Part shown: piece by piece, positions 2,250 through 40,029 of the stretch | Numbering within the stretch: the stretch's first letter is position 1 | Layout: the number at the start of each line of letters is the position of its first letter | From: Marsupella aquatica | Taxonomy: Eukaryota > Plantae > Marchantiophyta | Direction of reading: 5' to 3' | DNA length: 64,000 nt | NCBI GenBank assembly: GCA_973895155.1 | Contig: OZ316895.1 | Location: 19,792,803 to 19,856,802 of the forward strand | The notes under the pieces: model-generated | What the model was told of the DNA's origin: nothing | What the model saw: only the letters and a program-made list of their open reading frames with translations | Databases searched by the model: none | Position numbers and translations under genes: made by a program

Positions 2250-4124
2250 CTATTTCGAATAGTTTCTCAATTGGCTATATGCGGTCACCCAGCAGAAGAC
2301 GAAGAACAAATTGAATGAACCATTTCCATGTTTCATGCAACCAACTTAATACTCTCTGCTCAATACCGCAATATGAATTTTACTAAATACTCAGAATTGA
2401 TCGCCCATATGCTCCTTGCCAAAAAAATCAGATTCTACTCTTGAAAAATTCTAAAACAAGGCCCCCTAGCACAACACCAACCCCACAAAAGCCAAAAGCT
2501 TTGTTCAACAGCAACTCTGTTCAATGAGGGCGAGACAACTTTAGAGGACGTGGTATCTTCAAGGGAAATAGAGGATGTTATGGAGGGAGGGGCCAAAACC
2601 AATTTTTGAAAGGTCAAGGAGCAGGGAGATCAAATAACCCTACCAATTCATGGCCGAGGAGGCAGCCCAATGGTCGGGACAATGGTAGAGGGCGAGGCAG
2701 AAATAACTATAATGCGACAAGAGATAAGCAATCTGAACCCTACCGATGCTTCAGATGTGGTACTATGGGACACATGAAAAAAGAATGTAGGGCACCCACA
2801 CATGTGGTTAAACTATACAAGGAAAGTATTAATAACTCTAATTAAACCATAACCACAAGGGAATTTCCTTGAATTAAATGAAGACCTCACCCAATATGTA
2901 CATGCCCCTGCATATATCCCCAAAGTCCCACGTTATTACTTATGAAACACAATCACCATTGTTAGATGACCCAACAAATTAACTGTATTCTAGATAATGG
3001 GACATCACACCATATCCTATGAAATAAGATATTATTTTCAAATATCACACTGTCATCCAAAATGGGTATAGCACGCGTGACAGTAAACAGAAAATAGGTT
3101 TACTGGTACCATGAAAATTTTTCCAATTACCAGCAAAAAGTTACTGTTACCAGGAAAAATAACCATGTCAAAATATTTTCTAAAAAGTCTCATTTTCCAA
3201 AAAAATCTAAGTTACAACATTTTTTGGCTAGCTTTGGGCGCTAGCAAAAAAATAAAATTTTAAATTTTTTTTTCCCAAAAAAAAAATTCAAAAAAAATTC
3301 AAAAAAATTACCACTCATTTTCCTGTTACCAGTTTCTATTTTCTGTTACTGTTTGTTGTTTCCTGTCGTTTGTAAATACCCCTCCAAAATGATGACTACT
3401 ATCACTAGCCATAAATAGATTGAAGAAGACTATGGCCGAGCTACATTTATACTCCCTAGAGGAACTGTTATCCGTATTGCGGCTGCCATATTTGCACCTA
3501 TAGCCACCCGGAATCCCGCCCGGAATCTCATTAGTTTTCAGGATATCAGGGCTAATAAGCTAGAAATACAACTAGTAAAGCAACATGATGGAAGTCCTAC
3601 ACATCCTAGAGAAAACTACTAAGGGAATGGAAATCAAGGAAATACTTCCATTACAACCTCTAGGCCTCTATATTACACAGATTCAGGCATACCATATAGA
3701 AGTAAACACACTGAATAGCACTACAACCTGGCACAACAGATTGGGCCACCCTGGTACTAGTATGTACCAAAGGATTATAAAAGACACAACTGGAATACCT
3801 CCCACTGTTCGCCCTTCTTCCCTAGAACCTTGCATGGCTTGCTCCCAAGGCAAGCTTGTAACCAGACCAGCAATCTCAAAAACTATTCATACTATTCCAA
3901 ATTTCTTGGAATATTTAAATGCTGATGTTTGTGGCCCAGTAGAACCACCAAGTGGCCCATTTTGCTTGTTCCTAGCTATTATAGATTCCTCATCCAAATG
4001 GTCACAGATATCACTGCTATCAACTGGAAACCTAGTAATTTCCCGCATCCTAGCGAATTTCCTCAAACTACGAGCACAATTCTCCGCTAGCTAACCCTAT
4101 CAAAATCCTCAGAGTAGATGGAGT
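2250..4124 (+). pseudogene. Ty1/copia (Bianca-type) element 1, 5' part: gag, protease, GAG-pre-integrase, integrase N-terminus
   Basis: Gag ...FHATNLILSAQYRNMNFTKYSELIAHMLLA; zinc knuckle CFRCGTMGHMKKEC (2606-2845 ORF); WHNRLGHPG...CMACSQGK...ADVCGP (3585-4094 ORF). Interrupted at KILRVDGV by an insertion. Its 5' LTR was not found. Confidence 0.85.
3064..3382 (+). mobile_element. MITE family A, copy 1
   Basis: 8-bp TSD TCCAAAAT at 3056-3063 and 3383-3390; ends GGGTAT...ATACCCC; closely similar copies at 25210-25543 (reverse) and 41559-41892. Confidence 0.9.
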
Positions 4125-5922
4125 TATAATAGAGGGCTTAAGCCCTTAAGGATATAAAAGTTATCTCATATGAAAAAAATGGTTTTCAATGACCATGTTG
4201 AGGACCTTGAATGACTATTTAAGCATTTGTGAGTATATTAAGCTTGAATCATGCCAAGGTGCATGTAAAGATGTTATGGTCCCTCATTCGACTCAATAGT
4301 GAAAGAGGAATAAAACCATAAATGGATTCGTATTGGGAAAATCTTATAGTGAGGAGAGACCTACTTCAACCCCTCAAGGAAAGGTTTGGCTTCTGAATTG
4401 AGGTCCAACTTTTCACAAATTTGAGTTAGATGGTTAATTCTAAGGTGAATTAATCAATGCATTTTAGCAAACAAGTAGCTTGATCTTTTATCAAGGTTGT
4501 GTTGCCCCACTTTCCAGTAGTTCATGGAAAAAATTACACCAACTGTGCTGGAAATTGAGGAGTTATTCCATCCGGAATTTGAACCGGTTTTCATCCGGTT
4601 TTTGAGCCGGTTTTTTATCCAGTTTGGACATACCATCCAATAGAAAAACTATCATAACTCTCAAATCATTTATCCAAAACAAGATTTGTAAAGTGTGTTG
4701 GAAAGCTCTTTTTGAGGCGGTTAAGATATATATAAAGAAGTCTGAAAATGGATTCAAAATGATCCACTTAAAATTATGAGACTCCAACCAGTACAACCAA
4801 GAGATATCTGAGATTTCCGGACGAAGAATGGAGTGAAGATTTTGAAGCGTTGTTTCCACACCATTAGACCTTCAAGATGTCTGATTTTGGACCAATAGGA
4901 AGTATGATCCATAGCAATGGACCTTAACCAATCAAAATGGTTGGATAAGTATGAAAGGATACTATGAAAAGATGTACCCATTCATTGGAAGATGGAGAGA
5001 CTCGATAGTCAAATTTTTATTACTCTAGCACTCCTACATTTTACATACGCCAATGGACATTATCTCAAGACCTCATCTTTGGAAACCTTTCAGTTTGGAA
5101 CCAAGAATTGTACTACCCACTTCCTATTTTATTACTACCTTTGGAGGTGTCACTTTCATGCCAAACCCTCTCAACTCCATTGACCCAGCAGTAGACCCCA
5201 CATTGGTGAAACCTAGCACTTCAAGTCCTGATCAGTAAAGAGTTATTCCATTCGGGATTTGAACCAGTTTCCCATCCTTATACTATAAAACTTAGTATAA
5301 AAAGAATTAGACTTTGAATTTTTGGTGAGCACTTTATCTCATAGTCTAGTTTCCGACTTTAGCATTACTTTTGACTTTTACACTTAGGTTAGGAAATGAA
5401 GAGGCATACCTCTTCAACTTTTGTTTAGAGGAGACTTGTCCTCATACATAAGAGGGAAAGTTTCCACCTTTTCACTCAGACTTACATTGCACTTGTGAAA
5501 GTCTCCTTCTTTGAAGAGAAGTAATAGATTCATATTTATCTTTGGTAATCTATGACTTGTGTTTGGAATTTAGTGCGTGACCATACTTGCTAGAATCTGT
5601 TTGATGTGACTAGCAATGTCATGTCGATATTCAAATTGACTGGAAACGCATGCTTGAGTTTATGCAAATGAATTGACTTGAGTGTTTGGAATGCTTATAA
5701 AGTATTTTTGGAAGATGCGCCAAACGAGAACTCACAATTACCATAGATCCAGAAAAGCAATCTTGAGAGTTGATTAAAAGAGGAAGTTTGTTCGGAGTAA
5801 TGAGTACCAATTTGTTATGACTTGGCCATAAAGTTAATACGGGCTTACTTCCATATATCTTTTACAAATTCTTAGATGGTTGGCTTTAGAGATTAGCTTT
5901 AGGCATCAGCCTAATTTAGTCA
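4125..5922. mobile_element. Solo LTR, left part (continues at 41070-41432 after the MULE)
   Basis: 5-bp TSD GGAGT at 4120-4124 and 41433-41437; ends TATAATAGAGGG...CCCTACTCTATA (TG/CA decayed to TA/TA); removing it restores integrase ...RVDGVGEFTSKTFDDFC. Confidence 0.75.
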
Positions 5923-6317: not shown

Positions 6318-6586
6318 TTATTCTATTATCTGATATGTGCACAGGTCATAAATAATCTTCTTTTGCAAGTCTCCTACCTGACTGCCATCAAAATCCATAG
6401 GAGCATCTCGACTTATGCGCTCTGCATAGTTAAGGATAAATACCCCACAATTTACACTATCTTCTTGTGATGGAAGGCCTGACACTAAAGTTCTAGGCCA
6501 GTTGTATGGATCTGGTGAGGGCATGCCTCTTTGACTTGCTTCATCCTTGATATACCTTGTTAGAGTATACATGAGATACTCATTTC
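6318..6586 (-). pseudogene. Ulp1/peptidase C48 SUMO protease, C-terminal part with oxyanion Gln and catalytic Cys
   Basis: LPSQEDSVNCGVFILNYAE; joins in frame to the segment ending at 10290 (…WEARN|EYLMYTLTRY…) when the LTR element and one TSD are removed. Confidence 0.9.
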
Positions 6587-9500
6587 TGTTGAGGAATGAT
6601 GCGGGAAATGATAATGAGATTTCTCTCTATAGAATGAATGGGTGCATCTCTTTATATAGTCTCCGTCCGAGTTATCCTATATGGTAACTATGGTTAAGGT
6701 AACCATGGAGTCTAGTTAGGGTATAACACTCCCCCTTGGCTATATAGTGATAACTATGTAGACAAAAAGTCTTCTAACTAGATTATCATGCTTATAAACA
6801 TGGCATGATTTGAGTACAAATGAGGAAGGTACTGCCTCGTTAAAACCTTTAATAGCTCTAAAAAACTCTATCAAGGTAACAGAGAAAAAAAAATCTCGGC
6901 TCTAAAGGAAAAAGAGTACAGCCCTGTCGGTCCTCAAGTGAATCCGGTGGTATGTGGAGTTAACAGTAACAACTCCACTCCATCAAAATGAACAAGTCGT
7001 CGTATGCTCAACGACTCAACAACAATGCGACATGTCTCCAAATCGCTCACCATCGCGCATACATCCGCACATACATCCTCGCATCGAATACAAATTAAAA
7101 CATATATGAAAAAATGATTAGTAATTAAGTTATTATCATAAAATCACTTGTCCGTGGCTCATCTGCGCAAAGTGTAAAGTATAATAATAATTAATGTCAT
7201 CTCGTGCAACTGAGTGCGTAATGTATGGGATGTAAAGAGTCCGAAAGATATGATCTCCCCCTCAAAACAAGGTTTCGAGGAATATATTATTCTCATAAAA
7301 CTCAAATATCGAAACTCTCCCTTAGAGTTCAAGGACTCCTAATTAGATTCTTAAATAGAGGGTTCTTGTGCAAAATGCACAATTCGCAAGCGTGTGTAGT
7401 CGACACACAAAAAAATCTCTCAATCTTAGATTTCAAAACATGTAGTATCAAATAGTTTTTATATGAAAAATAATCTGCAGCACCAAAGAGTGTGCATTCA
7501 CAACACCAGCGGGTGTGTGTATAATATGACACGTCTGCCCTGCACGTCTGCAGTTCTCATATTTTGACAAAAAGTGTCAAGTCAATATAGCTTCACAAAT
7601 AACCCCGTGGAATCCAAACATTCAGTCGAACGTCCATGTGTGTCATAGCACAGAGAAGTGCTAGCTCAAAATGATTCGCTATCTTGCGGAGGTAAAGTGA
7701 TATTCATAAACGTCAAACAACTCTGTATAAAAATAGTTTAGAGCTAGTGATAGTCAAAAGATCCCACTTAATGACCAAGTACCAAAATGTACTCGTAGTG
7801 GGTAAATCAAGTGTGATTGGGGTTTGAGAAAATAAACTTTCTCCCCCTAAATATGCATTTTATGCATATATTATAGTTGAAAGCTAGAATTAAGTTGGAC
7901 CGAACAAAGTTATGGGGTTTGCCCATATTAACCCCTCATTACTCATTCTGATATGAGTTTACTTCGGGTTTCTAAATATTCGCAGTTAAACCCCTAAAGG
8001 GTTATTGATTATCCGCTTTTGGGTATGGCCGGAAATTAAGGTCATGGAACTAACCTGAAGTACTGTACCTTAGATTATTCTGGATTTTTCGTGAGAAACA
8101 TATCTGCCATCGATCACTGGACCTCAGAAAATCTATACCTTACCAAAATACCTCAAAAACTAGGTCATAGAGCATGGTTAAAGGTATGGTATTAGTTCCA
8201 TACTTAAAAACTATCATCCCACCGAACGATGGCTATAAAAGCTTCCGTTTGAGTTGTTTATGGTATAAAGACCATGAGGATAAGACCCTTAAGTAAGATA
8301 TTGCCCTAATGTAGGGTGTAAATGGGTGTAAAAGTTGTAAATGGTCAATTTACACACAAAAAGTGTATGGACCAAAGTTTATTCCCCTTGATGGTGTAAA
8401 TTGGTGTAAACCAGTGTAAATGCTATAAGCAAGTATAATCTGGTGTAACCAGTGTAAACAAGTATAAACCCAATGTAAAGCATGGGATTATACAATGGTA
8501 AGACATACACCAGTGTAAACTGGTGTCATGAGGTATAATCTAGAATGGTATCAATAGGTGTAAACTAGGGGTGTAAAATGGTGTAAAAACCATTTTGTGA
8601 TTGAAATGGGTGTAACAACCACTTTGTAAATGGAAAGTAGAGGTATTTGGTATAAAACCATTATTTCCAATGTGCAAAATCAAGTAAGGGTGGTATGACA
8701 TGTAAATATGTCAAATGCATGTAAAGCATGTGTTGCACATGTAAGGCATGTTAATGTATGCAAATTCAACAAGTGACATGTAATTTCCCTAAACCAGTTG
8801 ATGTGTTTACATGTGTAAACTGTGTAAATTGCTGTGTAAATTTGCAATGTGCACTTATCATTTTCCATTTCATTTGTTTATCCATAAGTGCAAAACATCC
8901 GTTGTCAACAAGATTTTCTTTGTTAATATGTGCATATATGGATAGTTTTTCAAAAATGAAGATTTTGCACTGAAGCACATGGGATTCTCTTGTCTTTGGA
9001 TAAGTGCACCCAAGCATTTGTATTTCAGAAACTCTTTACTATACTGTGCATTTAATGAGGGTTGCACTTATCTGGTGTTCGAGTTTTTCTCGAGGATTTT
9101 GAGATTGAATGTTGCATGTTTAAGTCACTCATGTGTGTCTCTTGAAATCTCACTTGTCGCTTTGGCTCATTCGTTGATTGCGATCAGCTTCTCAGGCTCA
9201 TTCTTGGACAAGCACAACATTCCATATTTAGGATTCAGAAAATGCTATCAGATCTAGACCCCACAACGATGACTTGTTTCTTGCGCTGGATGCCATCTCC
9301 CGTACGTTCACAACCAAAGCCAAGATGTTCTTCCTCCATGACATTTGCTTCTATCTTCTCCAATTTGATACGACTGTATCAAATGGCTCTTATTGGAATC
9401 TTCATTGAATCAGCAAACGACCAATTCAACATCCATGTTTGGCCTCTTGTAATGCCTATACTTCACTCGATCGTGTGTAATGGGCATTTCCTTTCATCCT

Positions 9501-10289
9501 TTATGGCTTGCAGATCGACCAACAAGAAACTGTCAGCGGTTGAGAAACATTGTGAAATTCAGGGAAAGAGAAGGCGCCTGTGTTCGTCCCTTATGAGGTT
9601 AGGGTTTTGAAAATTTTTCTTATGATCCCGATCGGGTCCTGATTTGCTCTCGATCCACCCGGCTTCATTCAAGGCTGTCTCTGTTTGGCTTCCGGTCTCT
9701 GCTCTTCTCTTTCTGCCTCTTGTTAAGGTTGTCAACTCATCGCCTCGAGTGATTTAGGTTGATCTGGCCTGGTTGGGTAGAAGGAAGCAGCGCGGCTGAA
9801 CTCGATCTCTCTTGCCTCAGCCATAGCTTTCCACTTGACTCAAATCATTGCCTTGAATACTGCTTTCCCACACGATCTTCAGAATCACCCTTCAAAACAA
9901 AATTTCTTTTGATCATATCACAGCCTTCATAAGCTTGCTCTCGGCCATAATGCTACATCATGTCGTTGCTTCAACGTGACTCATGTTCTCTTGGTGGTTC
10001 AAACTACTAGTCTTCTCACTCCCAATTCAATTCTCCTCCATAACTTGGAAATCCTTAAGAGAACATTCATTCATCATAGCCATAGGGAAATTCCTAAAAA
10101 AAAAATTCATGATCAAGCTCAGCTGGTCTAGAGTCGTGCTGATAACGTGTTGAGGAATGATGCGGGAAATGATAATGAGATTCCTCTCTATAGAATGAAT
10201 GGGTGCATCTCTTTATATAGTCTCCGTCCGAGTTATCCTATATGGTAACTATGGTTAAGGTAACCATGGAGTCTAGTTAGGGTATAACA
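6587..10289 (-). mobile_element. Non-autonomous LTR retroelement inserted in the Ulp1 domain
   Basis: 142-bp LTRs at 6587-6728 and 10148-10289 (TG..CA, one mismatch seen); TSD ATTTC at 6582-6586 and 10290-10294; PPT at 6729-6739; PBS-like CGTTATCAGCACG on - next to 10148; no recognisable pol. Confidence 0.92.
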
Positions 10290-11149
10290 ATTTCGAGCCT
10301 CCCAAAAGTTTTCTGATTTCCCCCAAAGCGAATCTAGGAACAACACCTCTTTTCCAGTTAAATCAATCACTGCCAACACCCAATGCTCCCTGTTTGCCTG
10401 GTGGATAGGGACCAATATCTTGTCATAATCAAATATGTTTTCTGTTTTGGTCCATCGAGCAACATTGGCAAAACAGTATACGGGCATTGAGAGCAACGTG
10501 TAGAATGTTGTGATGAAAAATGCACACTTTGGATAGCCTCTTGATCTCCCCCTAAACTGCAACAAGGCCAAATATGCATCGATGATATCTGAATGTAGCC
10601 ATTGAGCTGCTGTTCTTCCCGGGGTTCTTCCTTCAGACAAGCATCTCATTGACGCCTTGGTCAACTTGTAATCTACAAAGTTGAACAGTACTTCCTCGTC
10701 TAGGAGCTCTATGGATAGACATGTGGATACTATGTCGGAAAAGTCTTGAGAGCAAACTACTTCAGCAAATAACCCAGGTATCCGGGTATTCCCACCACGT
10801 GCTGCATAGGATTGAACACCATGGCATTAGGTATCATCTTCATGTGAGCTATAGGTCACAAAAGAAGGGTGAGCTATCTTGTCACTATCACTGCTGACAC
10901 TCTCACTTTCATTGTAGTCTACCTCTACTGCTCTATCATCTACAAATCTAGATTTTTGCCTCTTTGTGTACTTCTCAGCTACACCCTTGAGCCGTTTGAA
11001 GGGGCATGAATCAACAATCCCTTCTGCGTAAGTTGGAAGGCAAAATCTTTATGTCCGACAGAAAGGTTTTGATGTTTCCTCCCATGCTTCACGGACTTTG
11101 TTCTTGTCCGATGTGTGCCATTGTTCGGACTCGATGTTCCTATAGTGAA
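10290..11149 (-). pseudogene. Ulp1 protease exon, N-terminal part with catalytic His and Asp
   Basis: WLHSDIIDAYL...FFITTFY...KILVPIHQANREHWVLAVIDL...FLDSL; the frame extends up to 11149 through two TAA codons. Confidence 0.88.
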
Positions 11150-11289
11150 CTGCCTATTGGTTAAGTAGACAGTTTAAGGTAATACCATAATAATGTGGAA
11201 CTTCACATTTTTATTGATCCTCACCATGGCACAATGTAAATTGCAAACTATCTACAACAAATGGGTTCTTGGATTCAACGTTTACTCAC

Positions 11290-11800
11290 AATCCTGAGCA
11301 TCCCCACCCTTGCCTTCTGTAGCATCCTCCTCTGAATCAGACTCAAGGACCAGCTTCTTCCGCCCTTTAGGCTTTTTAGTCTCCTTGGCCTCCTCCTTCT
11401 TACTCTCCTTGCCCTCCACCTTGGTCTGATTGCCCTGCTGCATTGAAAGGAGTTTTGACACCACTGTCAAAGCTGCTGACTCACCAAAGTAGTCATGCGC
11501 TTCCATCCCAAATACTAGTCGCCCACAATTATTGGCAGCTTTGTAGATAGCACCAAAGTGGACATTCCAAGAAAATACGATATTGCCGGGACTGGTGATG
11601 TGCTCTATGATGCATTGCAAGGTTGCAGGCGATAAGGTACCGGCTAATTTGTCTCTCACTGCATCATCTTCCTTTGTAAAATTGGATAGAGTATTGCTCT
11701 TTGCTGGGCACAAGTCACCAGTAATTGGCTTCATAAGTACCTTTGGGAGGGTCACCTCTGTACCCTTCATGGCGAATATATCCAAATGCAGATATTGAGC
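11290..11800 (-). pseudogene. Exon encoding the C-terminal half of a beta-class N6/N4 DNA methyltransferase-like fold plus a charged linker
   Basis: LSPATLQCIIEHITSPGNIVFSWNVHFGAIYKAANNCGRLVFGMEAHDYF follows the N6_N4_Mtase pattern kP..L...li...t.pGd.VlDpF.GsG....Aa...gR..iG.E....y, but FxGxG is degenerate; acceptor GACAG ends at 11801. Confidence 0.6.
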
Positions 11801-11854
11801 CTGTCACATCATGCAATATAGATTAGCAACACTAATTAACTTATCCGACATCGG

Positions 11855-12320
11855 TCCTACCTATCTCAGAGAGGCTCTCCAAGATTCCAAGTACCTATCT
11901 CAGAGAGGCTCTCCGAGATCCAAGCTACCTATCTCAGAGAGGCTCTCCAAATCCAAGCTACCTATCTCTCCGAGATGGATCCTACCTATCTTAGAGAGGC
12001 TCTCCGAGATCCAAGCTACCTATCTCAAAGAGGCTCTCCGAGATGAATCCTACCTATCTTAGAGAGGGTCTCCGAGATCCAAGCTACCTATCTCAGAGAG
12101 GCTCTCCGAGATGGATCCTACCTATCTTAGAGAGGCTCTCCGAGATGGATCCTACCTATCTCAGAGAGGCCCTCCAAGATGGATCCTACCTATCTCAGAG
12201 AGGGTCTCCGAGATGGATCCTATTTGAGAGAGGTTCTCCTACCTATCTCAGAGAGCCTCTCCGAGATCCATGGTACCTATCTCAGAGAGGCTCTCCGAGA
12301 TGGATCAGGCTCTTTGAGAT
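11855..12320. repeat. Palindrome array B (intronic), about 12 copies at 34-bp period; resumes at 19859-19965 after the copia insertion
   Basis: Unit approximately CCTACCTATCTCAGAGAGGCTCTCCGAGATGGAT. Confidence 0.92.
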
Positions 12321-12675
12321 TGATCCTGTTGGGTATTTACTCTTATGTCTAGGTTAGGTATGATGTGGTTGGTACAACAACGTGGGTTGGTACAACTATG
12401 TGGTTAGGTACAACTACGTGATTAGGTACAACTATGTGGTTAGGTACAACTACATGATTAGATACAACTATGTGGTTAGGTACAACTAAGTTGCACACTA
12501 TATCATAAGAGGCATGTGTGCTTGGAGAGGTAGAACCAAGGCTCATTGTTATGGAGCCACTTGAGAGATAGGGAGAGCTTACACTGTGGAGACTCGATGT
12601 AGCCGACGGGTTTAGAGTTCAGTAAAGCTCTCTTGTGTGTTCCCGTGGACGTAGCCTCAAGGAGGTGAACCACGT

Positions 12676-14435
12676 TGTCCGGGTGACCGTATTTTCTGGC
12701 AAGAGCATGTTGGCTCTTTTGAAGTTAACCTTGCATGCTCATAAGTTCTACACTAAAATCAAAATGATAATTCTAGTAACAAGGGTAGTGGGTATTAAGA
12801 AAGGTTCAGATCCATGACTTCAATAAAGGACAAAGATGATGCACTCCCACTCCTCTTGGTACGACACCACTGGGTATATTATTGGCTCGTTAGAAACCAT
12901 AACAGCAGTTGCAAACTGAGCTCCAAAATGATAGGTTAGATGTTGCCTCATAGATCGTTTATCTAAAAGATGGACTCTAATCAAAAACGGAATACGAAGG
13001 GGAAGATCAGGGATAACTCTCTCTCCTGGATTCATGATGGCTCTCCTATTCCTTTGCTATCCGGGCCAAAGGACGCCCCACCCCTATATTCCCAAAGAAA
13101 CCTTATTCCCTAAGGTCCCATCTATAAGTCTACCACTCATTCCTTTGCTATCCGGGCCAAAGGACGCCCCACTACTATGTTCAAGGCACAAAAGAGCTTC
13201 ACAACCTTGAATGATAAACACTGCAGAATGAGGGGAGAGTGCCCCTCACCACTTTATTTATAGTGCACACCAAGAGGGCATGGATCAAGCCCAAGCACTT
13301 GGATGAAGGCCAAGTGTCAAACATCTAATACCAAAGAGTGTGCTAGTACTGTTCATAGTTGGTGAAACTACTTTTAGTAGGTGAAACTACCATGCGTTGG
13401 TGGAACTACTATGCGTTGGTGGACCTACTGTGCGTTGGTAAAACTACTGTGCGTTAGTAAAACTACTATGCGCTGATGGATCTACTGTGCGTTGGTAGAA
13501 CTACTATGCGTTGGTGAATATTATTGTAGTTGGTGCTACTCATATGCATTGGTGGAACTACTATAGTCCGTTAATATAGCTAAAGAGTTTTAATAAAATC
13601 TAAATTTAATAATCTAACTACTAAATTACTTATATAATCTATAGCATATTAAAACAAACAATTTTTTATAACTTAAGAGAAAATCACGATATATCACCCC
13701 TACCAAACCTGTGCATCCTCCGGTATGCACCACACCTAGAATCGTTATATGTCTTCTTCATCTAAAGCCTCATAGTCGTCGGGTTCAAACTCTTCCTCTG
13801 TCACAAATCAAGTTCGTCGTTTAAACAATTTCACTCGCTTCCCTGCATAGGGATTGCGATGAATTGCTCCATCAAGTTCTCTTACCACATATGTTGCATT
13901 AGGACGAACCTCCTCCACCACAAATGGTCCTCTCCAACGACGTGCAAACTTCTTCAGAGTAGAATGTTGCTGTTCCAATCCTCCCTCATAGATCAAGACC
14001 CAATCTCCATTCTGGATGGGAATTGGTCTCAAACGATGGGTCTTGTCAAATCGTTCCTTATTCTTCTCACGAGCCTCCTTTAGCCTTAGTAACGCCTCCT
14101 CAATCTTCTCCTTGGTCTGGCTAAAGTGCTCAATCCTTCGCTCTAGCAACTTTTCTCGGGAGATTCTATCTTGCCATTCAATCATCCTCCAACTCTGAAC
14201 ATTTTTCTCAATCGGCATCAAAGGCAAATGTCCAAAGACTAATTCGGCAGGCGTAATTCCTGTTGTGGTAGTGCATGTCATTCAATCTGCCAAAAGAGCA
14301 AATGGTAGAAGATTGGGCCAAAGCGATGGTTTTCCTCGGTAAGATTTCACCAAGGCATTCACTATTGGTGGGTGCCCTCGCTCAATCTTTCCATTTCCTT
14401 CTGGGTTGTAGGCAGTAGTGAGTTTGAGCTTGATG
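12676..14435 (-). mobile_element. Truncated Ty3/gypsy fragment (3' LTR 12676-13696, PPT, integrase C-terminus) inside the copia 5' LTR
   Basis: TTAYNPEGNGKIERGH...GITPAELVFGH...RWRGPFVVEEV (integrase core end and GPY/F motif); purine tract GGTAGGGG on - immediately before TGATATAT at 13696. Confidence 0.85.
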
Positions 14436-14927
14436 TTGAACCGGTCAAAACGATTTCGACGACGAAGGGTGGTAAGGGGTTTTGAGGGTTCGAGGACATG
14501 TGTCAGCCCCTCGATTGTTCTTCCAAAATTCCCACAGGGCCTGTACAAGGGTCATAGAATATTCCAAAAAACCAGAGAGCTATTTTTTGACCGTCCGACA
14601 AAGATTGCATCCGCCGAACGGTAACTTTTTTGGTTATTTTTTGGCGAGGTCGTAGCCATTGAAGTTGGCAAGCGGCGCACCAATCACATTGCAATTCTGA
14701 CAACGGGTTGTACTTGGTATTTCGGTTATTCCCTGAGGTGGTCAAAACGGGGGAGTTTCCCAAGGTTTTACCCACCTCGACCGAAATTTGAATAACTTTT
14801 CCGTCAAATTTTGATTTTGATTTCGGTTTTCAGTATTGGACTCCTAGCTTTGTGGGCTACGCGGCGGTGTTGAGTTTTGAGTTTTTTGAGAAGTTGTGAA
14901 AAACAACATTTTTTGTGATTTTCTCAT

Positions 14928-17900
14928 ATGAATGATTCGGAGGAGTTTTTCGAAGACGTGGAACTTGAAGCACGAGGATCACCGCGGAGGTTTCAGGGGC
15001 AGAGAGAGGAGCAGGAGGAAGAGCACGTGACACCGATACCATCACCGGTGCGGCGTGTGGTGGAGGAAGCTGTACTACTACCGGAGCTCACGGTAGTGCC
15101 AAAGAAGAAGATGGGGACTTTCAAGCTTGGGGGACCCAAGTATGAAGTGACAAAGTATGATGGGCGCTCTGACTACTTGCTATGGGAGAAGCAGGTGAAG
15201 GGAGTGCTCTATGCGTCAGGGATGGGCCAATTGCTGAGCCCTCGTGAAGACGATGTTGATGAGAAACAATGGGACCGCATGCAGGAGCAGGGAGTGTGGT
15301 GTGTTACACTCTATCTCATGCCTCCCATCATCAAGCAGTTGGGTGCACATAAGGATTGCATGTCCTTGTTTACGGAATTGCAGAGCAAGTATCACCGCAA
15401 GGAGTTGTCGAACCGGCTCTACACTTCCTACAAACTGATGAGTTTCAGGATGAAGGAATCCGGTACGAAGTTGCAAGACCATGTGGATGCTTTCAACGAC
15501 ATGGTCGTTGACTTGGAAAACCTTGGGGAGACTTTGAATGATGAGACGAAGGCTCTGCAGCTTCTTAGTTCATTGCCTCCATCTTACCAGTCCCTATCAC
15601 GAGTGTTGTTGCATCGTGATAGGGATACCATTTCATAAAATGACGTGGTAAGTTCTCTGCTTAGTGATGATCTTCAGCAGAAGATGCACATCACGTCACA
15701 GCCTTCATCATCTGGTGCTGCCCTCAATGTTAACCGTGGAAGGAGTATGCAGTGACCAACTGGGGACCGTAGAACCCAGTTTAGATCTAAATCCAGATCT
15801 AAGTCCAAGGGTAAATCCCCTCAGAGGAGGCAGGTGACATGTTGGAAGTGCAACCAAGTTGGACACTTCAAGCGAGACTATAAGGGAAAGGCAGCGGAAA
15901 CTTCATCGGCAAATGTGGCTAGGGCTGATGGAGAAGCTGATTTACTCAATGATGAGTATGTTTTATGAAGTCGGGGGTATGCCCTGTGCACGTCATCTAG
16001 GAGAGTAGATGATGTATGGATTCTTGATTGTGCTTGCTCTTTTCATATTTGTTACATTCGTGAGTTTTTCAGTTCTTACTCTGTTTCAAACAGTTCAGTT
16101 CTGATGGGAAATGATCACTCCTGTCAAATTGAGGGAATTGGGTCTGTGAAGATTAAAATGTTTGATGGCGCTGTGCGCACAGTGTCCGAAGTCAGGTATG
16201 TACCTGGCATGCGTAAGAATCTGATTTCACTCGGTGTGTTGGATTCAAATGGTCATCAATGGAGCGTTATTGATGGTGAACTTCAAGTCAGGTCGGGAGA
16301 GACAGTGATTTTGAAGGGGAGTAGACAAAAGAATTTGTATGTGTTACAGGGCAATACTGTATGTGGAGAGGCCAATGTAACCAAGTCTCACGAGGAGATG
16401 ACTCAACTGTGGCATTCATGGCTAGGCCACATGAGTGAGAAGGGTTTGGCTATCTTACGGAAGAATGGACTCATTTCTGATTTGCAATCTTGTAAATTAG
16501 AGTTTTGTGAGCATTGCATTCTTGGAAAGCAGCATCGTCGTGCTTTTGGTGTTGGAACTCATCGTTCCAAAGCGGTTCTTGAGTACATACATAGTGACGT
16601 GTGGGGTCCATCCCCGACTCCCTCACACTCTGGAAAATTATACTATGTATCATTTATTGATGATTACTCAAGATTTGTGTGGATTTATTTCATGACGCAT
16701 AAGTCTGATGTCTTGTCCATTTTTAAGAAGTGGAAGGCCTAGGTGGAGAATCAGACTGGAAACACGATCAAGTGTTTGGATACAAGGGTGAAGAATCTGA
16801 GGTCAGACAACGGCGGGGAGTACACTTCAATGGAATTTGAAGAGTACTGTTCAGAACAGGGGATAACTCGCCATCTCACCATAGTTTATACTCCGTAGCA
16901 GAATGGTGTCGCTGAGAGACTCAATCGGACACTGTTGGAGCGGTCATGGAGTATGTTGAGCCAATCAGGTTTACCACAAGAATTTTGGGCAGAAGCTGTC
17001 AATACCGCAGCTTATTTGGTAAATCTTTCTCCTTCTAGTGCTATCAATTTCAAAACGTCGTTTGAGATGCGCTATAAGCGGCAAGCAGACTATCATGGCT
17101 TGGTAGTTTTTAGAAGTGATGCATATGCTCTCACACCGAAGCAGAATAGGATCAAGTTGGATCCTACCTCCAAGAAATGTGTTTTTCTTGGGTACCAGAG
17201 TGGTGTGAAAGCCTATAGGCTATGGGATCCTATTGCCTGTAAGCTCGTTGTCAGTAGGGATGTTTCCTTCAATGAATCCAGATTATTGAAGGAGGGGGAG
17301 AATACTCAGGTCTCCCGTACTGACAAAGGAAAATCTTCTATCCCGGATCTCGTTGAGGGGGAGATTGGTTATGAGGTGCATGACCGGAGAGAAGGAGTTG
17401 CTCCAATTATGGAGCTGGTTCCTGTGCCAGAGGAACCAGAGGAGTTTGTTGATGCTAGTGAGCAGCAAGTGGATGTTGTTGAGCTTCAAATTGTACCAGC
17501 ACACACAGATCAACCGGAGTCATCGGCTAGAAGAACATTTGGTCGCACTGTACACGCTCCACCAAGGTATGGACAGTGGGTTGATTCATCTCAACTGCAA
17601 GAGGATGATTTTACAGCTGATGATGAGGGTGATGCGTTAATTTTGGAAGAAGGGGAACCTTCTTCATTTCATGAAGCAAGTGCTTCAAAGGAGAAGCATA
17701 AGTGGACTGCAGCAATGCAAACGGAGATGCAGTCACTAAAGGACAACAAAACTTGGGAGCTTGTTAAGCTGCCTAAGGGTCAGCAAGTGGTGGACAGCAA
17801 GTGGATTTATAAGCTGAAGGATAATTCCATAGGAGGTGGATCGAAAGTCTACAAGGCTAGGTTGGTAGCAAAGGGATTCACACAAGAGAAAGGTGTGGAT

Positions 17901-19213
17901 TACAATGAGGTCTTCTCACCAGTTGCTAAGTACTCTACAATACGACTATTGTGTGTACTTGTTGTAATGTTTGGTCTGCTGCTAGATCAGATGGATGTTG
18001 TCACAACTTTCCTCTATGGCACATTGGAAGAGGTGATCTTCATGAGACAACCGCTAGGTTTTGTGAAGAGAGGACAGGAGGAATTGGTTTGCAGATTGCT
18101 GAAATCCTTGTATGGGTTGAAGCAGTCACCAAGACAGTGGAACAAGCGGTTTGACGATTGGATTCGGTCACAAGGTTTTCACATAAGTGTATTTGATCCT
18201 TGTGTGTATTTGAAACCGGTAAAGAATGTTGTCTTTGGGTTCATTGTTTTAGTACTTTATGTGAATGATATGCTAATTGCAGCCAAGGATAGGTGTGAGA
18301 TTGTTAAGCTCAAGGCACTGCTTAGTGCAGAGTTTAAGATGAAGGACTTAGGGCTAGCTAAGAGGATTTTGGGTATGGAGATCACTATGGACTTGGAGGC
18401 TGGCAAACTATGGTTAACGCAGAGCAGTTATGCGAGGAAGGTAATTGCAAGGTTCAACATGGGGAATAGCAAGCCAGTAAATACCCCGTTGGCTCCACAC
18501 TTCAAGTTATTATCAGCGTTCTGTCCTACGGATGACATAGAGAAGGGGTTGATGTCAAAGGTTCCGTATGACAAGGCAGTGGGGAGTCTCATGTATTTGA
18601 TGACTTGCACTAGACCTGATCTTGCCATGGCTATGGGCAAGGTGAGCAGGTACATGTCAAATCCAGGGAAGGTACACTGGGAAGCAGTGAAGTGGATTAG
18701 TACTTGAAGGGTACCGTGGATCATGGTCTTTTATTTGATGCGAATGCAAAGAATGCTAAATCATTGATTGGCTATGTTGATTCTGACTATGGACAAGATT
18801 TGGACCAAAGGAGATCAACAACAGGATACGTGTTCACACTTGGCGGTGGATGCATAAGTTGGAGGTCTACTTTGCAGAAGTGTATTGCTCAGTCTACTAC
18901 AAAAGCGGAGTATGTTGCAGCTGCAGAAGCAGCAAAGGAAGCAATTTGGTTGGATAGACTTATCACTGAAATGGGATTGCCACAGGGGAATGTGAAGCTC
19001 CATTGTGATAGTCAAAGTGCGCTCCACCTTGCTGTGAACCAGGTGATGGACAGCAGAGTGAAGTACATTGACGTCAGGTATCATTTTATCAGGCAGACTG
19101 TGTCTGATAATTTGTTTGAGCTAGTCAAGATTGATGGTAAACTCAACCCGGCTGACGCATTTACCAAAGTGATTCCTTTGGAGAGTTTCTTTAGACACCG
19201 TGACGTATTGTAG
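14928..19213 (+). pseudogene. Copia gag-pol (gag, zinc knuckle, protease, integrase, RT, RNase H) with several stops and frameshifts
   Basis: [74 protein letters not shown]. Confidence 0.95.
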
Positions 19214-20001
19214 GTTTTGCAGTTGCATCATAAGTAGAGTTTTCTTAACATTCATTATAATTACTGATATATGCTCTTCCTCATTCCTATGTATTAGGCT
19301 ACGGCTTAGTTCTGGTTTGCTCTAGTTAGAGAGGGAAACCGGTTTGGTTTTTGTCCAGAACTTCCCGCTGAGGGATCATATACATTGGCAGTATTACTCT
19401 CCCCTAGACCAGAGTCAAGGGGAAGATTGTTGGGTATTTACTCTTACGTCTAGGTTAGGTATGACGTGGTTGGTACAACAACGTGGGTTGGTACAACTAC
19501 GTGGTTAGGTACAACTACGTGATTAGGTACAACTATGTGGTTAGGTACAACTACGTGATTAGGTACAACTATGTGATTAGCTACAACTAAGTTGCACACT
19601 ATATCATAAGAGGCATGTGTGCTTGGAGAGGTAGAACCAAGGCTCATTGTTATGGAGCCACTTGAGAGATAGGGAGAGCTTACACTGTGGAGACTCGGTA
19701 TAGCCGACGGGCTTAGAGTTCAGTAAAGCTCTCTTGTGTGTTCCCGTGGACGTAGCCTCAAGGAGGTGAACCACGTATCTCTTGTGTCGACTATTGTGCG
19801 TTGGATGGTTCATGGGCTTGCCGTTGCGATCGTCGTCTATGCTCAACAGATCCTACCTATCTTGGAGAGCCTCTCCGAGATCAATCTTACCCATATGGGA
19901 GAGGGTGTCCGAGATCGTAATTGTGGACACATTTTTCAACTATCTCGGAGAGCCTCTCCGAGATGACTTCTATTGAAATGCCAAAATTAAAGTGAACTTA
20001 C

Positions 20002-23000
20002 AGCTTTTTTGCTTGATACCATGTAGCAAGGTGTGTCATTCCAAATGGTGAATGAGTCAATGTGATCCAACTTCTCAGCCCAGTCAATGTGAAGGTACTC
20101 AAAGATTGAGTCTGTGTGGGCAAATAAACCACTGTGCACGCACAAGAAACCGTCGTTTGTGAGTAGAGAGTCTGCCAATGTCGTCGCCACTTCTAGGTCA
20201 CTGAGCCAAAATCTATTCCACACCGGAACATTATTTTCAGCCTGCGCTATGCGATAATCTGTCCCTAGCTTAACAAAGATCATATCACAACCATGGCCCT
20301 TAGGTACACCATCAACTATCCAACCTTGTTTTTGCAAGCCAACCAACTTCAATTTCTTACACCAGTCCCGGAATTCCCTCATGAATGGAGGGAGAGGCAA
20401 CTTTCCCATGGTTGGCTGGTATTTGTCCATCAACCAAGAAGAACACTCTAGTAAGGTCATATGCTCTTTTGCATGGCAAAATCGCAGAGCAGATGTAATA
20501 GCATGAGAGGGCCGAGGTACTCCCAAAATTTTGCAAAGATCATCCTCCGGAATTTTTGGGGCTTCTATTGAAACTGGCTTCTTTGTGGGTTTGTCTATTC
20601 TCTTCTCGGCTTTCTTCTTTGGCCGACTGGTTGGCTTACCAGAGATCTGTGGTTTGCTTGGGGTCCCACTTGGGGTCCCGCTTGGGGTTGAAAGGTCAGG
20701 CTCCTCCTCCTCCTCATGGCCCTCTGCATTGTCCCCGGTGGCCATCTGATCCTCCTCTCCATTGTCCCACTCGCCGCTTTCTCATCCTCCTCTCCATTGT
20801 CCCTGGTCTTTCTCGGCTCCATCTTCTCATCCATTGGACAACGTTTGCTTGAGGTAGACCCTTGGGTTCCAATCTTTTCTTTACTTTTTTTTGTAGAACA
20901 AAGTAAGGAGTTTAGTATACATTTTACAATGATACTATCTCGGAGAGGCTCTCAAACATAGGTCAGATGTACAATGTAAGCTAGGGTGTAAACCTTACAT
21001 GGAGTGCCTTGTTCTGAGGTGGTGTCTTTTGATTCCTTTTCTTTCTTCCCCCGAACCTTCTTCCCATCATACCCTGGCTCTCCAAGAGGCAAAATGGCCT
21101 CCAAGTCCAATGCAGCCTTTGTCGACTGCTCAAGATCTGGCAACTTTGAAGGCGCAAAAAGGTTGTCTGGTAGTTTCCCTTCCTTTAGGAGGTTGGCAGC
21201 TTCCTTCTCTTTGGGCGTAATGAACTCAATCCAATCATTGAACTCCATGAATCATGGACAATTTTATCTCTCCCAGTCTAAAAAGACTCTTGCTGCTGGC
21301 TTCAGCCCGTCTGTTGGATACATTGACAGCGGGCCTTTCTCCGTCATCCATGCAGTTAGAGCACTTGGTAACACTTTGAAAGTAGAGGCTCCAATGCTCT
21401 CCTGATGAAGTAAATATCTGACCACACACCTCTTTGCACGCTTCCTCCACACATCTTTGCTTTGCTTTGCTGGATTCCACATCTTATTGCCCTCCTCATA
21501 GGACCGAGTCTGTACAAATTGCTTGTAAATCTTGTTGTGAAACTCAACAAACTCGTCTTTGCTTCCATTGAAGTTCTGCCACTCACCATAATCATATGCA
21601 CTCTCGGCAAACTCTGACATGATCAAACTGCCAACATGGGCAATGTAACACCACATTGACCACACTAGCAACCAAGCTCTCACTGCTAAATCACCATATA
21701 CATCTGGATGGTGGTATCACTTATTATCCTCCGCGGTTGAGAAATGAACGCGTAGTAACTTGTTTCGACACTCAGCAGGCATCACTGCACTTGCAAACAA
21801 TTTAACTCGATCCAACCCCACTTGCACTTGTGGCCGATCTTTTTGTTTACTCTGCAACTGGTGCAGCTCCTCGGCAATCTCCAAAAATTCCTCTCCATTT
21901 GCTGGATTGACAATCTGAGCAAACTTCTGCATTTTGCCCTCCCAAGACCTACAGGCTTCACTCGTCATGAGTGCGGTTTCCTTCTGGAACTTATCCGAAC
22001 TCCAGGCATGGCCAATTGCAGCATCGGTTGCCATCTCCTTCGCAAGACAAATCCTCCCGTCTTCAATATTATTCCACGACATGATGTACACAATAGCATC
22101 CTTTGTCATGCACTTGCTATAGCATGTCTTTCCATGCCCATGGCTTCTTGCTGCTAAGAATCTAGCATAACCATCCGGATGAAGCAATGTTTGATACTCC
22201 TCCAAAGGTGTCATCAACAACTTCTTCACCCTGTCTGCATCGGTCAACCAAGATGTCTGCACAATGTTTGCGCTTATCTTGCGTAAAAGAAGCGACAAAT
22301 GTTGGCGTCAAAGGCTATGTACAAGCAAATTACATCTCTGTCAGATGCTCTCCGAGAAGGCATGGATATCTCGGAGAGGCTCTCTGAGAAGGCATGGATC
22401 TTCAAGAAGGCATGGATATCTCAAAGAGGCTCTCCGAGAAGGCATGGATCTTCAAGAAGGCATGGATATCTCGGAGAGGCTCTCCGAGAAGGCATCGCTC
22501 TCCAAGAAGGCATTGATATCTTGGAGAGGCTCTCTGAGAAGGCATCGCTCTTCAAGAAGGCATGGATATCTCGGAGAGGCTCTCTGAGAAGGCATCGCTC
22601 TTCAAGAAGGCATGGATATCTTGGAGAGGCTCTCCGAGAAGGGAAGGTTCTTTCTATCTCAGAGAGCCTCTCCGAGATAGCATTTTGAGTGCCAAACATT
22701 GTATGTGTGTATGTATCTATCTTGGAGAGCCTCTCTGAGATAGGATTGCCTATGTGGGTGCAAAAGAACGACAAATGCAAGAACAACCAAAAACCAAGGG
22801 GGCGGTCACTTACGCATTGAGGCCGTGCATTTCCTGCTCAATCTTCCTGAATCCTTGTTTTCCAGGTTGTAGAAGAGAGAATCTCATGCAAGGGTGGTAC
22901 TTCTGCTCGTCAAGATACTCTTCAGCCACTTGTCTCCATGCATTCAGGCGATGATTTCCATCAAACACCCAAAACATCTTACCCTTCAAAACATGAAACT

Positions 23001-23486
23001 CCTCGTACTCATCACACTCCATCTCAATTTTTGCGTTAGCTTGTTCCCATAGAGGGTCCCAATCCGCGGAAAATTCAGACAGGAGTGGGTGGCGTTATGC
23101 GCATTGGTCTCTGATATGTGGAATTCCCAAAACTTGTCCACATACCCATTCTTCACGAAGTCCTTCTTCATCTTGAGAATGGAACTCTGTTGGAGAGTCC
23201 AAACTGCCTCCATTGTCATCAAACGACATAGTGGAATCCAAGGTGGCTCTCTGGGCTTCCCGCTTGGTTCAGCTCCGAATGAAACCAAGTACTCCCCAAC
23301 AATCCCCTCGAATGCACCTTTGTTCAAACGTTCACCAGACACATTTTCAAAGTTCAGAACCTTCGGCTCCAGCTTCTTCACTGTGTGAGTTTCCCGACCA
23401 CTGGCGGTGCTCTCTGTTGTCTTTGATCTGGTCTGCCGACCAGACAATGAAGGAGAGGGAGTGGGTTGCTTCCTCTTCCCTGTCAT
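20002..23486 (-). pseudogene. MULE cargo gene, 5' exons: ParB/Sulfiredoxin-like domain, unknown helical region, N-terminal half of MTase-like fold
   Basis: ATG at 23486; WIPLCRLMTMEAVWTL...KDFVKNGY and FWVFDGNHRLNAW (ParB/Srx GxHR motif); ORFs 21717-22298, 21264-21683 and 20952-21248 share one frame broken by point stops; CDMIFVKLGTDY...DSLLTNDGFLCVH...FTIWND resembles MTase motifs IV-VII; donor GTAAGT at 20001 joins 11800 in phase 0. Confidence 0.7.
22345..22742. repeat. Palindrome array C (intronic), about 8 copies, mostly 50-bp period
   Basis: Unit approximately GGCATGGATATCTCGGAGAGGCTCTCCGAGAAGGCATCGCTCTTCAAGAA, inside the intron that opens with GTAAGT near 22813 on -. Confidence 0.9.
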
Positions 23487-24000: not shown

Positions 24001-24589
24001 GAGGGAAAGATCACAAAGCAACTTACGCTCTCCGAGAAACATGAGGTCTTGCACTCGCTCGGCCTCAATTGCTCGCCTTTCAAATGAGGAAAGGCAAGAG
24101 ACGGCGGGGACTCACCAAAGTAGTCATTATCATCATTAGGCAAAGGAAGATCTAGGGGCATCACAACTGAATTCACTATTGCCGTCATGCAGGTCGAGTC
24201 CCATCCAAGCAACGGGAGATCTATGGGACCACTCATTGATTACAAGTGGTAGGGGCCACGGGAGGAAGTTGACATGTTAGCAGTTTATTGGCTTATATGT
24301 AGTCGTACTTTGATAATGATGAATGCCTAGATTTGACTCATGTCAGAGTTGCAACACTGAAGTACCTATACAGATGCTTTCATTATTACTCCCCCTTCAC
24401 GCTATAATGTCCTTGGTACGATTGACTCCAGACCAGATAAGGTTTCCTATCATTCCTTGGTATTAATGAGTACGATCGCTCAACGACCGGATTTAATTCC
24501 AAAAAATATACAGTACTCACATGACATGTCAGGCCAGTCTCAACTTCCTCATTGTCTCCAAGATGACATGTCATGCCAGCTAGGACCCA

Positions 24590-25866
24590 TGTCAGAGAAG
24601 CTCTCCACTCTGACATATAAAGTCGGGACTTAAGTCGGAGAGGCTCTCCAAGATGACATGTCATGGAGGACCCATGTCAAAAAGGCTCTCCGAGATGACA
24701 TGTGTGGGGACTTAAGTCGGAGAGGCTCTCCGAGTTGACATGTAAAGTGGGGACTTAAGTCGGAGAGGCTCTCCGAGATGACATGTAAAGTGGGGACTTA
24801 AGTTGGAGAGGCTCTCCGAGATGACATATCATGGAGGACCCATGTCAGAGCCTCTCCAAAATTGAATATACACAAGATCAGACCTTGGAGAGGCTCTTTG
24901 AGTTGACATATCAGGTTGGTGATAACTTTGGAGAGCCTCTCTGACAAATATTGGGCCTAATCCTTGCTACACACCTGAAGATGGCATCTCGAAGAGCCTC
25001 TCCAACATGGGTGGAGACTTCATACCTGCGCAAGATGGTATCTCGAAGAGCCTCTCCAACATGGGTCAAGGCTACATACCTCCACAAGATGGCATCTTGG
25101 AGAGCCTCTCCAAGATGAAACTTGGTGAGATCCGGTGCAAGATCTAATCTCGGAGAGCCTCTCCAAGATGGGTCGAGGCTACATACCTCCGCAAGATGGC
25201 ATCTCCAAGGAGGTGTTTACAAAAGACAGCAAACAGGAAACAAGATTTAATAACAAAACTGGTAACAGGAAAATGGGTGAAAAAAAAATTTGAAATTTTT
25301 TTTGAAATTTTTTTTTGAGAAAAAAAAAAGGTTTTTTTTCAGTCGACCAGTTTTTTTTGCTAGCGCCCAAAGCTAGCCAAAAATGTTGCATTGTTAATTT
25401 TTTTTGGAAATAACATGTTTTAGGAGACATTTTTAAATTGTCATTTTTCCTGGTAACAATGATTTTTTCCTGGTAATTATAGCATATTGAAAACAGGAAA
25501 AAAAATTCTTGTTTACCTGTTTCCTGTCTCCATCGCTATACCCTCTCCAAGAGCCTCTCCAAGATGAAACTTGGTGAGATCCAGTGCAAGATCTAATCTC
25601 GGAGAGCCTCTCCAAGATGGGTTGAGGCTTCATACCTCCGCAAGATGGCATCTCGGAGAGCTCTCCAAGATGAAACTTGGTGAGATCCGGTGCAAGATCT
25701 AATCTCAAAGAGCCTCTCCAAGATGGTTCGAAGCTTCATACCTCCGCAAGATGGTATCTCAGAGAGCCTCTCCAAGATGAAACTTGGTGAGATCCGGTGC
25801 AAGATCTAATCTCGGAGAGCCTCTCTAACATGGGTTGAGGCTTCCAGATGGCATCTTAGAGAGCCT
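24590..25866. repeat. Palindrome array D between the divergent cargo and transposase genes, about 20 copies in at least two unit types
   Basis: Units GGGACTTAAGTCGGAGAGGCTCTCCGAGATGACATG (about 42 bp) and GATGGCATCTCGGAGAGCCTCTCCAAGATG (about 54 bp, alternating spacers). Confidence 0.9.
25210..25543 (-). mobile_element. MITE family A, copy 2, inserted into one palindrome
   Basis: 8-bp TSD TCTCCAAG at 25202-25209 and 25544-25551; reverse complement similar to 3064-3382. Confidence 0.88.
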
Positions 25867-25974
25867 AATGGACACCCTAAACTTAGTCACTGTCACTAAT
25901 AGTTTTCATGCTCACTCACAAGGGTACATTGTCAAGAAGGATTCTCACATATTCAACGAGGGAAGAATATTTGT

Positions 25975-26345
25975 AACAATTTTTACGCTCGGTCTGGGCG
26001 ATAAGGTACTCTGACAAAACAATCTTGACATATTCAACAAATAAAGAAGCGAGTCTAACAATTTTTACGCTCTATCTAGGCGGTAAGGTACTCTGACAAA
26101 ACAATCTTGACATTCAACAAAGAAAAAAGCGAGTGTAACAGTTTTTACGCTCGGTCTGGGCGATAAGGTACTCTGACAAAACAATCTTGACATATTCAAC
26201 AAAGAAAGAAGCAAGTCTAACAGTTTTTACGCTCCATCTGGGCAGTAAGGTACTCTAACCAAACAATCGTCACATATTCAGAAAGAAAGAAGCGACTCTA
26301 ACAATTTTTATGCTTTGTCTGGGCAATAAGGTACTCTAACAAAAC
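25975..26345. repeat. About 4.5 copies of an 80-82 bp tandem repeat upstream of the transposase
   Basis: Unit AACAATTTTTACGCTCGGTCTGGGCGATAAGGTACTCTGACAAAACAATCTTGACATATTCAACAAA.AAAGAAGCGAGTCT starting near 25975, 26057, 26137, 26219 and 26300. Confidence 0.85.
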
Positions 26346-26477
26346 AAAGTCATAAGAATCAATAACAGTTTTCACATACTGTTTGTTGATTAAGTTACGC
26401 TCTTGAGAAACAAAGAGGAATTGAGCAAGCCGGAAAGGCAATAACATCCCTTACATGAACGAGGCATCTCTCGGTGG

Positions 26478-30570: not shown

Positions 30571-30774
30571 TCAGCGGGCAAACCTACTTTTGGTGGAGTT
30601 TTCTATCCATTGCTCTTAGTGCTTTCGAATTGCCTATGCTGTGTGTCCTACTTTTTGTATAAATTGCACTCGTGATGTTAAGGGCAATGCTCATTTGTCT
30701 GTATGCTTTTCAGTTTACTTGTTGCCACCTTACGCTCCGCAAAGAAACTTCTCGTGCCATGCATCTCATCACTA

Positions 30775-39932: not shown

Positions 39933-40029
39933 ATGCATGTCAAAGATGTTTTGGGTTTAGTGGGTAGAACAATCTACTTTTATATCCTGTCATAATAATA
40001 AATGTTCAAGATTTCAAATGATGTTGATC

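Follow-up and report, generated by a model that had tools for sequence, protein, structure and literature searches.

Within the 64,000 nucleotides of the liverwort Marsupella aquatica analysed here (hereafter the window; GenBank assembly GCA_973895155.1, contig OZ316895.1, forward-strand positions 19,792,803 to 19,856,802), a Mutator-like DNA transposon of 35.1 kb carries on its minus strand a cargo gene, modelled with six exons, an ATG at 23486 and about 1,450 codons. Based on the comparisons below, we consider it likely that a Ulp1 protease domain forms the last exon of this gene and that the main product is a protein of approximately 1,450 residues with a ParB-like, a methyltransferase (MTase)-like and a Ulp1 part. 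This reading involves two introns, 11289-11150 and 10906-10802, both of which we infer to be spliced out. The copy studied is itself dead: exon 1 is frameshifted, as exon 3 probably is, exon 2 contains stops, a further stop lies at 11051 and a long terminal repeat (LTR) element sits in the last exon. The parts of the gene, in the order of transcription, are:

22814-23486, minus strand: exon 1, with a ParB-like domain (motif VFDGNHR) and, in this copy, a frameshift near 23050-23010
20999-22272, minus strand: exon 2 (boundaries approximate), with a conserved domain outside known families and premature stops at 21719, 21266 and 21254
20002-20878, minus strand: exon 3 (5′ boundary uncertain), a charged linker and the N-terminal half of the MTase-like domain
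20001-11801, minus strand: intron 3, filled by a Copia element
11290-11800, minus strand: exon 4, the C-terminal half of a degenerate beta-class MTase-like domain and a charged tail
11150-11289, minus strand: intron 4, GTGAGT...GCAG, 140 nt, phase 1, containing TAA 11284-11282
10907-11149, minus strand: exon 5 (linker), 81 codons, with TAA 11051-11049 private to this copy
10802-10906, minus strand: inferred intron 5, GTGAGA...TGCAG, 105 nt, phase 1, with TAA 10829-10827 within CTAAT 10830-10826
10290-10801, minus strand: exon 6, first part, the N-terminal half of the Ulp1 catalytic domain with His 10385 and Asp 10334
6587-10289, no strand assigned: young LTR element within the Ulp1 exon, LTRs of 142 bp (99.3%), target site duplication (TSD) GAAAT
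6318-6581, minus strand: exon 6, second part, the C-terminal half of Ulp1 with Gln 6467, Cys 6449 and the stop 6320-6318

A preliminary description of this DNA had joined a donor at 11289 to an acceptor at 11150 and thereby entered the Ulp1 frame, which was borne out on the minus strand. Exon 4 ends with GAT T at 11290 and GTGAGT follows from 11289; GCAG ends at 11150, across a gap of 140 nt, and exon 5 opens with TT CAC TAT AGG at 11149. This region of the window was compared with the contigs of six public sequencing runs (X1-X4, X6 and X7; X1-X4 and X6 come from three organisms, A, B and C), scoring changes at a share of at least 25%. At this share, donor 11289 and acceptor 11150 are unchanged in the runs covering them. 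Relatives show losses of 1, 3 and 10 nt in intron 4; those of 1 and 10 nt are confined to the 140-nt gap, and exon 5 stays in frame. The contigs of the six runs contain no joint at intron 4 or intron 5 and are uninformative on splicing.

Two in-frame TAA codons had been described between this joint and the Ulp1 domain; they are present at 11051-11049 and 10829-10827. The first is GAA in all five covering runs (X1-X4 and X6, organisms A, B and C; counted as one contig per run, GAA amounting to 80% of the depth in X3) and is therefore private decay of this copy. The linker exon is open in relatives, where the main indels are multiples of 3. Outside intron 5, the linker frame from 11147 to 10650 contains a single stop in 131 codons, compared to 10 and 9 in the other frames (by shuffling, P = 0.002 for at most one stop and 0.0002 for none). 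Of 39 listed differences from relatives, 9 are synonymous and 30 non-synonymous, about equal to shifted frames; given this resemblance, they are probably mostly decay of this copy and do not constitute a selection test. As a separate observation, a contig of X3 with a depth of 207 skips approximately 180 nt of the linker (10827-11008) and represents an amplified internal-deletion derivative.

The second TAA behaves differently. It is conserved family-wide, in relatives from three organisms: no change at the scored share was found in X1, X4 or X6, and a loose-end contig of X6 also shows it intact. Around it, 13 of the 105 positions of the segment 10906-10802 vary, among them its neighbours 10819, 10823, 10832, 10839-10841 and 10844. 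Decay as an explanation of both TAAs was rejected on account of this conservation, and with it the earlier claim of one exon read through two decayed stops. Since the second TAA is found throughout the family, a fusion requires the further intron 10906-10802; the conservation also suggests that a read-through exon never existed in these relatives.

Most likely, judging from the surrounding signals, the second TAA forms the branch point of this 105-nt intron. The first AG downstream of CTAAT belongs to the CAG ending at 10802, lies 25 nt from the branch A and keeps the Ulp1 frame; branch motif, CAG as first AG and frame are found together at only 3 of the 2095 TAA sites in the window. The donor at 10906 ranks at the top of 17 GT sites with 7 of 9 consensus letters, no other GTRAG stands between the two TAAs, and the phase of this donor matches (chance 0.12). 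A loss of 2 nt at 10900 occurs in three of four runs (24/386 in X1, 228/1043 in X2 and 75/1536 in X4, i.e., 6%, 22% and 5% of the depth; 0/8918 in X3), marking an amplified sub-family. The loss makes the intron 5 donor a GTGAGT; in coding sequence it would shift the reading frame. With 11289-11150 and 10906-10802 removed, exons 3 to 6 form 722 codons, whose sole stop is the private one at 11051.

The Ulp1 domain itself is clearly recognizable. Both halves match Pfam PF02902 (59.7 and 27.8 bits, cut-off 20.7), the top Atlas clusters are PF02902 as well (0.95), and 15 chains in PDB were matched at E ≤ 0.001 (best 1.2e-16), SENP2 and SENP1 being closest. Proteases of the Ulp1/SENP type have a His-Asp-Cys catalytic triad and an oxyanion Gln. 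All four residues had been reported to be present once the LTR insertion is removed, and they are indeed found, in order, at 10385, 10334, 6467 and 6449 around the insertion 10289-6587, as in SENP1, SENP2 and Ulp1 (Peptidase C48; PDB 5aek, 2io0, 1euv). The domain is likely a SUMO-removing protease. In the two longest open reading frames (ORFs) of the 3.7 kb LTR element no coding domain was recognised, and with its near-identical LTRs it is a young, non-autonomous element. Related copies lack it at this site, since contigs in X3 (3 records) and X4 (1 record) depart at 10301 and continue with letters matching the C-terminal half of Ulp1.

A separate start for this domain is difficult to find. 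Only two ATGs, 10649 and 10487, are in the Ulp1 frame between 11147 and 10290, and exon 5 has none, in line with the earlier statement that no ATG precedes about 10650. If translation began at 10649, the conserved Trp would be preceded by 16 residues, or by 12 without the 12-nt insertion of this copy (4 residues ahead of the Trp motif, found in some copies only). Among the matched SENP crystal chains, this stretch measures about 25 residues in the shortest (205 aa) and about 44 in those of SENP2; exon 6 supplies 66. This supports the view that no available ATG could yield the full Ulp1 fold. When the N-terminal part of Ulp1 was searched against PDB, no alignment reached further upstream than the Trp motif, and the argument therefore concerns chain lengths only. 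With the linker open in relatives, donor and acceptor unchanged and no ATG for a full fold, the proposal that the cargo protein ends in the Ulp1 domain is supported.

The other two parts of the protein are less well defined. In exon 1, which was scanned in pieces because of its frameshift, the ParB-like domain gave weak matches to a PHROG (E = 0.021) and to the DGQHR domain (E = 0.019). Exon 2 shares 44% identity over 155 aa with the Calypogeia protein CAM6126174.1. Exon 3, probably frameshifted near 20780, gave no match for its MTase-like part in Pfam, PDB sequence or Foldseek searches, and its predicted model (predicted local distance difference test score, pLDDT, 60) had no Foldseek match at E ≤ 0.001. 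For exon 4, a sub-threshold match to NCBIfam PRK13699 was obtained (E = 0.06) and single-sequence fold prediction reached a pLDDT of 32; Atlas clusters of N6_N4_Mtase score 0.85-0.86 for the MTase-like part, which is a lead only. Beta-class N6-adenine/N4-cytosine MTases carry a catalytic (D/N/S)PP(Y/F) motif and an FxGxG motif that binds S-adenosylmethionine. Both are absent from exons 3 and 4, and the catalytic motif is also absent at the matching strand in 12 aligned homologues; the MTase-like part is thus likely inactive as a methylase. Accordingly, of the single ParB-MTase-like-Ulp1 protein proposed in the preliminary description, the fusion is supported by the sequence, whereas the ParB and MTase labels, based on sub-threshold matches, are weakly supported.

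Protein homologues of exon 3 numbered 13 at E ≤ 0.001. Ten were looked up and four of these had organism names, all of them liverworts (Calypogeia fissa and Riccia sorocarpa), which fits a bryophyte-type host. The Riccia protein P0007 aligns 20 residues beyond the joint of exons 3 and 4, and this splice is therefore supported. Intron 3 ends with a CTAAT branch motif as well, at a distance of 22 nt. Locus scans of metagenome contigs and viral contigs gave no related locus.

Several observations weigh against a six-exon gene ending in Ulp1. Among the 13 homologues none reaches Ulp1 and none scores above the Pfam cut-off, and 12 of them stop at or before the position of intron 3; longer homologues spanning to Ulp1 were not found, in weak searches, one of which missed the known 559-aa homologue P0002. 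The profile matches of the ParB and MTase parts are below threshold. At intron 4, a competing TAG acceptor that the preliminary description had missed ends at 11154, 4 nt upstream of the CAG; it is also kept in a diverged copy, and its use would end the protein within approximately 25 codons. The TAA 11284-11282 is unchanged in relatives (X1 and X4), and exon 5 by itself is weakly open (shuffle P = 0.057 for at most one stop). Intron 5 has an exon-like GC content of 44%, compared to 35% in intron 4, its length is divisible by 3, and translation of its 5′ part gives a Ser/acidic sequence resembling a protein tail. Weaker phase-1 donors at 10900, 10891 and 10885 would keep the frame, too. The unchanged state of 15 signal positions of intron 5 is not significant taken alone (P = 0.14), and the branch-point test was post hoc, made once conservation had been seen. 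Finally, small indels at 10615-10628 and one contig in X1, X2 and X4 indicate that amplified copies can hold changes unrelated to function.

Some of these points would be accommodated by one gene with two products. A short ParB-MTase-like protein, made when intron 5 is retained (stop at 10829) or when splicing goes to the TAG acceptor at 11154, would be a main product, with the Ulp1 fusion as a minor, regulated isoform. Intron 5, with the GC content and length just mentioned, can be read for 26 codons before the conserved TAA, and TAG and CAG acceptors are both kept in the diverged copy (loose end at 11155). However, the 2-nt loss at 10900 would change the retained tail in an amplified sub-family, one X6 contig has three adjacent changes within the segment, and a branch-point role fully accounts for the conservation of the TAA. 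We consider this arrangement unlikely.

Alternatively, a ParB-MTase-like gene might end at TAA 10829, conserved in the three organisms, with Ulp1 translated separately from the in-frame ATG 10649. Such a pair would be separated by just 178 nt from stop to ATG, and the start would remove most of the N-terminal part present in the SENP crystal chains. In addition, the 50 codons before it are open in frame (P = 0.04 for no stop), and the phases of donor, branch point and acceptor agree; the probability of two genes divided here is low. Lower still is that of an upstream gene ending at TAA 11284-11282, followed by Ulp1 with its own promoter and first exon: the charged tail of exon 4 could be a C-terminus and the TAA is unchanged in X1 and X4, but a consensus donor GTGAGT stands at 11289, the 1- and 10-nt losses occur only in the 140-nt gap with exon 5 in frame, and Ulp1 would be without a start because exon 5 has no in-frame ATG. 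Even taken together, the two separate-gene readings are improbable.

The fused cargo gene is part of a larger element, whose main features are:

5923-41060, no strand assigned: Mutator-like DNA transposon of 35.1 kb with its nested insertions counted, delimited by TSD and alignment of terminal inverted repeats (TIRs)
5999-40916, no strand assigned: arrays of a 21-bp palindrome, TCTCGGAGAG[G/C]CTCTCCGAGA, found by motif matching with at most 3 mismatches
26445-39872, plus strand: probable transposase gene, in separate pieces at 26445-28450 and at 39465-39872 (SWIM-like exon), assigned partly by eye
12327-19776, plus strand: Copia LTR retrotransposon within cargo intron 3, terminal repeats of 349 bp (97.1%)

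A 9-bp TSD together with TIRs is the hallmark of Mutator-superfamily transposons, Mutator-like elements (MULEs) included. The element is flanked by the 9-bp TSD ATTTAGTCA at 5914-5922 and 41061-41069, and imperfect TIRs beginning with GAG run inward from 5923 and 41060; it therefore fits this superfamily. The whole window contains 70 matches of the palindrome, every one of them within the element, where they form subterminal, intronic and intergenic arrays near 6000, 11850-12300, 19850-20970, 22360-22740, 24550-25840, 28470-29000 and 40000-40900. The probable transposase gene is arranged head-to-head with the cargo gene. Its SWIM-like exon matches SWIM below the cut-off (E = 0.019, 14.9 bits, cut-off 19.6), and no Pfam match to a MULE transposase family was found in the transposase-like pieces. 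That Ulp1 might be part of the transposase was considered and rejected, the transposase being on the opposite strand and 15 kb away.

In VANDAL elements, non-TIR MULEs of Arabidopsis and other eudicots, the VANC genes named Kaonashi (KIU) encode a Ulp1 domain (PMC13317346), and motif binding by VANC has been described (PMC5735166). As in the Marsupella element, an accessory gene apart from the transposase is carried by a Mutator-type element, and Ulp1 is placed on a protein that recognises short motifs repeated in arrays across the non-coding stretches of the transposon encoding it, a role that the palindrome would play here. In contrast, the Marsupella element has TIRs, its arrays repeat a 21-bp palindrome, Ulp1 is partnered by ParB-like and MTase-like domains, and among relatives with names the nearest are proteins of liverworts; no cargo exon piece matched the VANC-type Pfam family. 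For VANC, binding and anti-silencing have been shown, whereas for the Marsupella cargo both would follow by analogy. We thus treat the resemblance to VANC/KIU as a functional analogy only.

ParB-like cargos are known from algae. The Ectocarpus element Sola1-1_Ec32 has an accessory gene with ParB and an N4C/N6A MTase (PMC12477816), and in Bostrychia Plavaka elements PAG3 combines ParB with a 2-oxoglutarate oxygenase beside inverted-repeat arrays (bioRxiv 10.1101/2025.02.11.637652). These are giant DNA transposons as well, with a cargo on the strand opposite the transposase, a ParB-like N-terminus joined to a modifying-enzyme fold, and inverted-repeat arrays proposed as binding sites. The main texts of both papers contain no occurrence of Ulp1 or SUMO. 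The Marsupella cargo differs in its additional C-terminal protease, its eroded MTase motifs and its Mutator-like carrier in a land plant. ParB-linked MTases are also listed in PMC4738411; neither the accessible text of that paper nor that of bioRxiv 2024.04.02.587720 mentions Ulp1 or SUMO. Further, Ulp1 is fused to transposases in Ginger1 and animal Mutator elements (PMC2836005), where it is likewise the C-terminal domain of an intron-containing transposon protein; in Marsupella it belongs to the divergently transcribed cargo protein and not to the transposase. ParB-MTase cargos have been described in Ectocarpus and other algae, VANC-Ulp1 fusions in MULEs of eudicots, and the three-part combination was not found in print, that is, among the titles and abstracts of the listed literature matches (subscription papers, Repbase reports and algal supplements being outside this scope). 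The Marsupella cargo links these two lines, which have been reported apart.

By analogy with these systems, the N-terminal ParB-like part might bind the palindrome arrays of the element, the MTase-like part, its catalysis lost, might work as a scaffold or a reader of DNA, and the protease, being tethered, could take SUMO off silencing proteins on the element, acting as an anti-silencing factor like VANC/KIU. As a whole, we hold this mechanism only tentatively, at somewhat less than even chances; alternatively, Ulp1 may contribute to transposition or to repair, which has been proposed for the Ulp1 domains of Ginger and Mutator elements (PMC2836005). More speculative, and in our estimate doubtful, is the idea that early land plants evolved their own anti-silencing protein independently of eudicot VANC/KIU, from a ParB clamp that loads on the element's palindromes and carries a SUMO protease to clear silencing complexes of SUMO. 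Many transposons have captured Ulp1 domains, whose role there is called unknown in a review (PMC13317346). If true, a bacterial-type ParB clamp would provide a convergent and directly testable answer to this repeated capture. With Ulp1 fused to a protein that has an obvious candidate target, the 70 palindromes, a single protein, a single motif and a single catalytic mutant would suffice to test the anti-silencing idea.

A number of minor features were recorded in the window. The terminal repeats of the Copia element (12327-12675 and 19428-19776) have TG at one end; the canonical other end and a TSD were not resolved. Within it (12675-14400), an opposite-strand ORF at 13811-14281 without a Pfam match resembles, by eye, the end of a Gypsy-type integrase and is accompanied by a 19-bp tandem array at 13339-13585. 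Just upstream of the transposase-like ORF, at 25947-26347, an 80-82-bp unit unrelated to the palindrome is repeated in tandem about five times. A separate element is nested at 32050-38058, with a 19/20 inverted terminal match; a TSD was looked for at its ends and not found. It contains a PHD-finger ORF at 32264-32959 (PHD_NSD, E = 4.6e-08) and a transposase-like gene at 33877-37807, which had no match in Pfam, NCBIfam or PDB and whose motifs, by eye, recall P-element transposases. Inverted sequences with a 16/20 match at 29168 and 38411 could be the ends of another, larger insertion nested in the intron of the transposase gene. Finally, three related repeats of 270-350 bp with 73-80% identity (3064-3382, 25212-25478 and 41559-41892) probably represent a family of miniature inverted-repeat transposable elements; two of them are outside the Mutator-like element, and the third lies within it, between the cargo and transposase genes.

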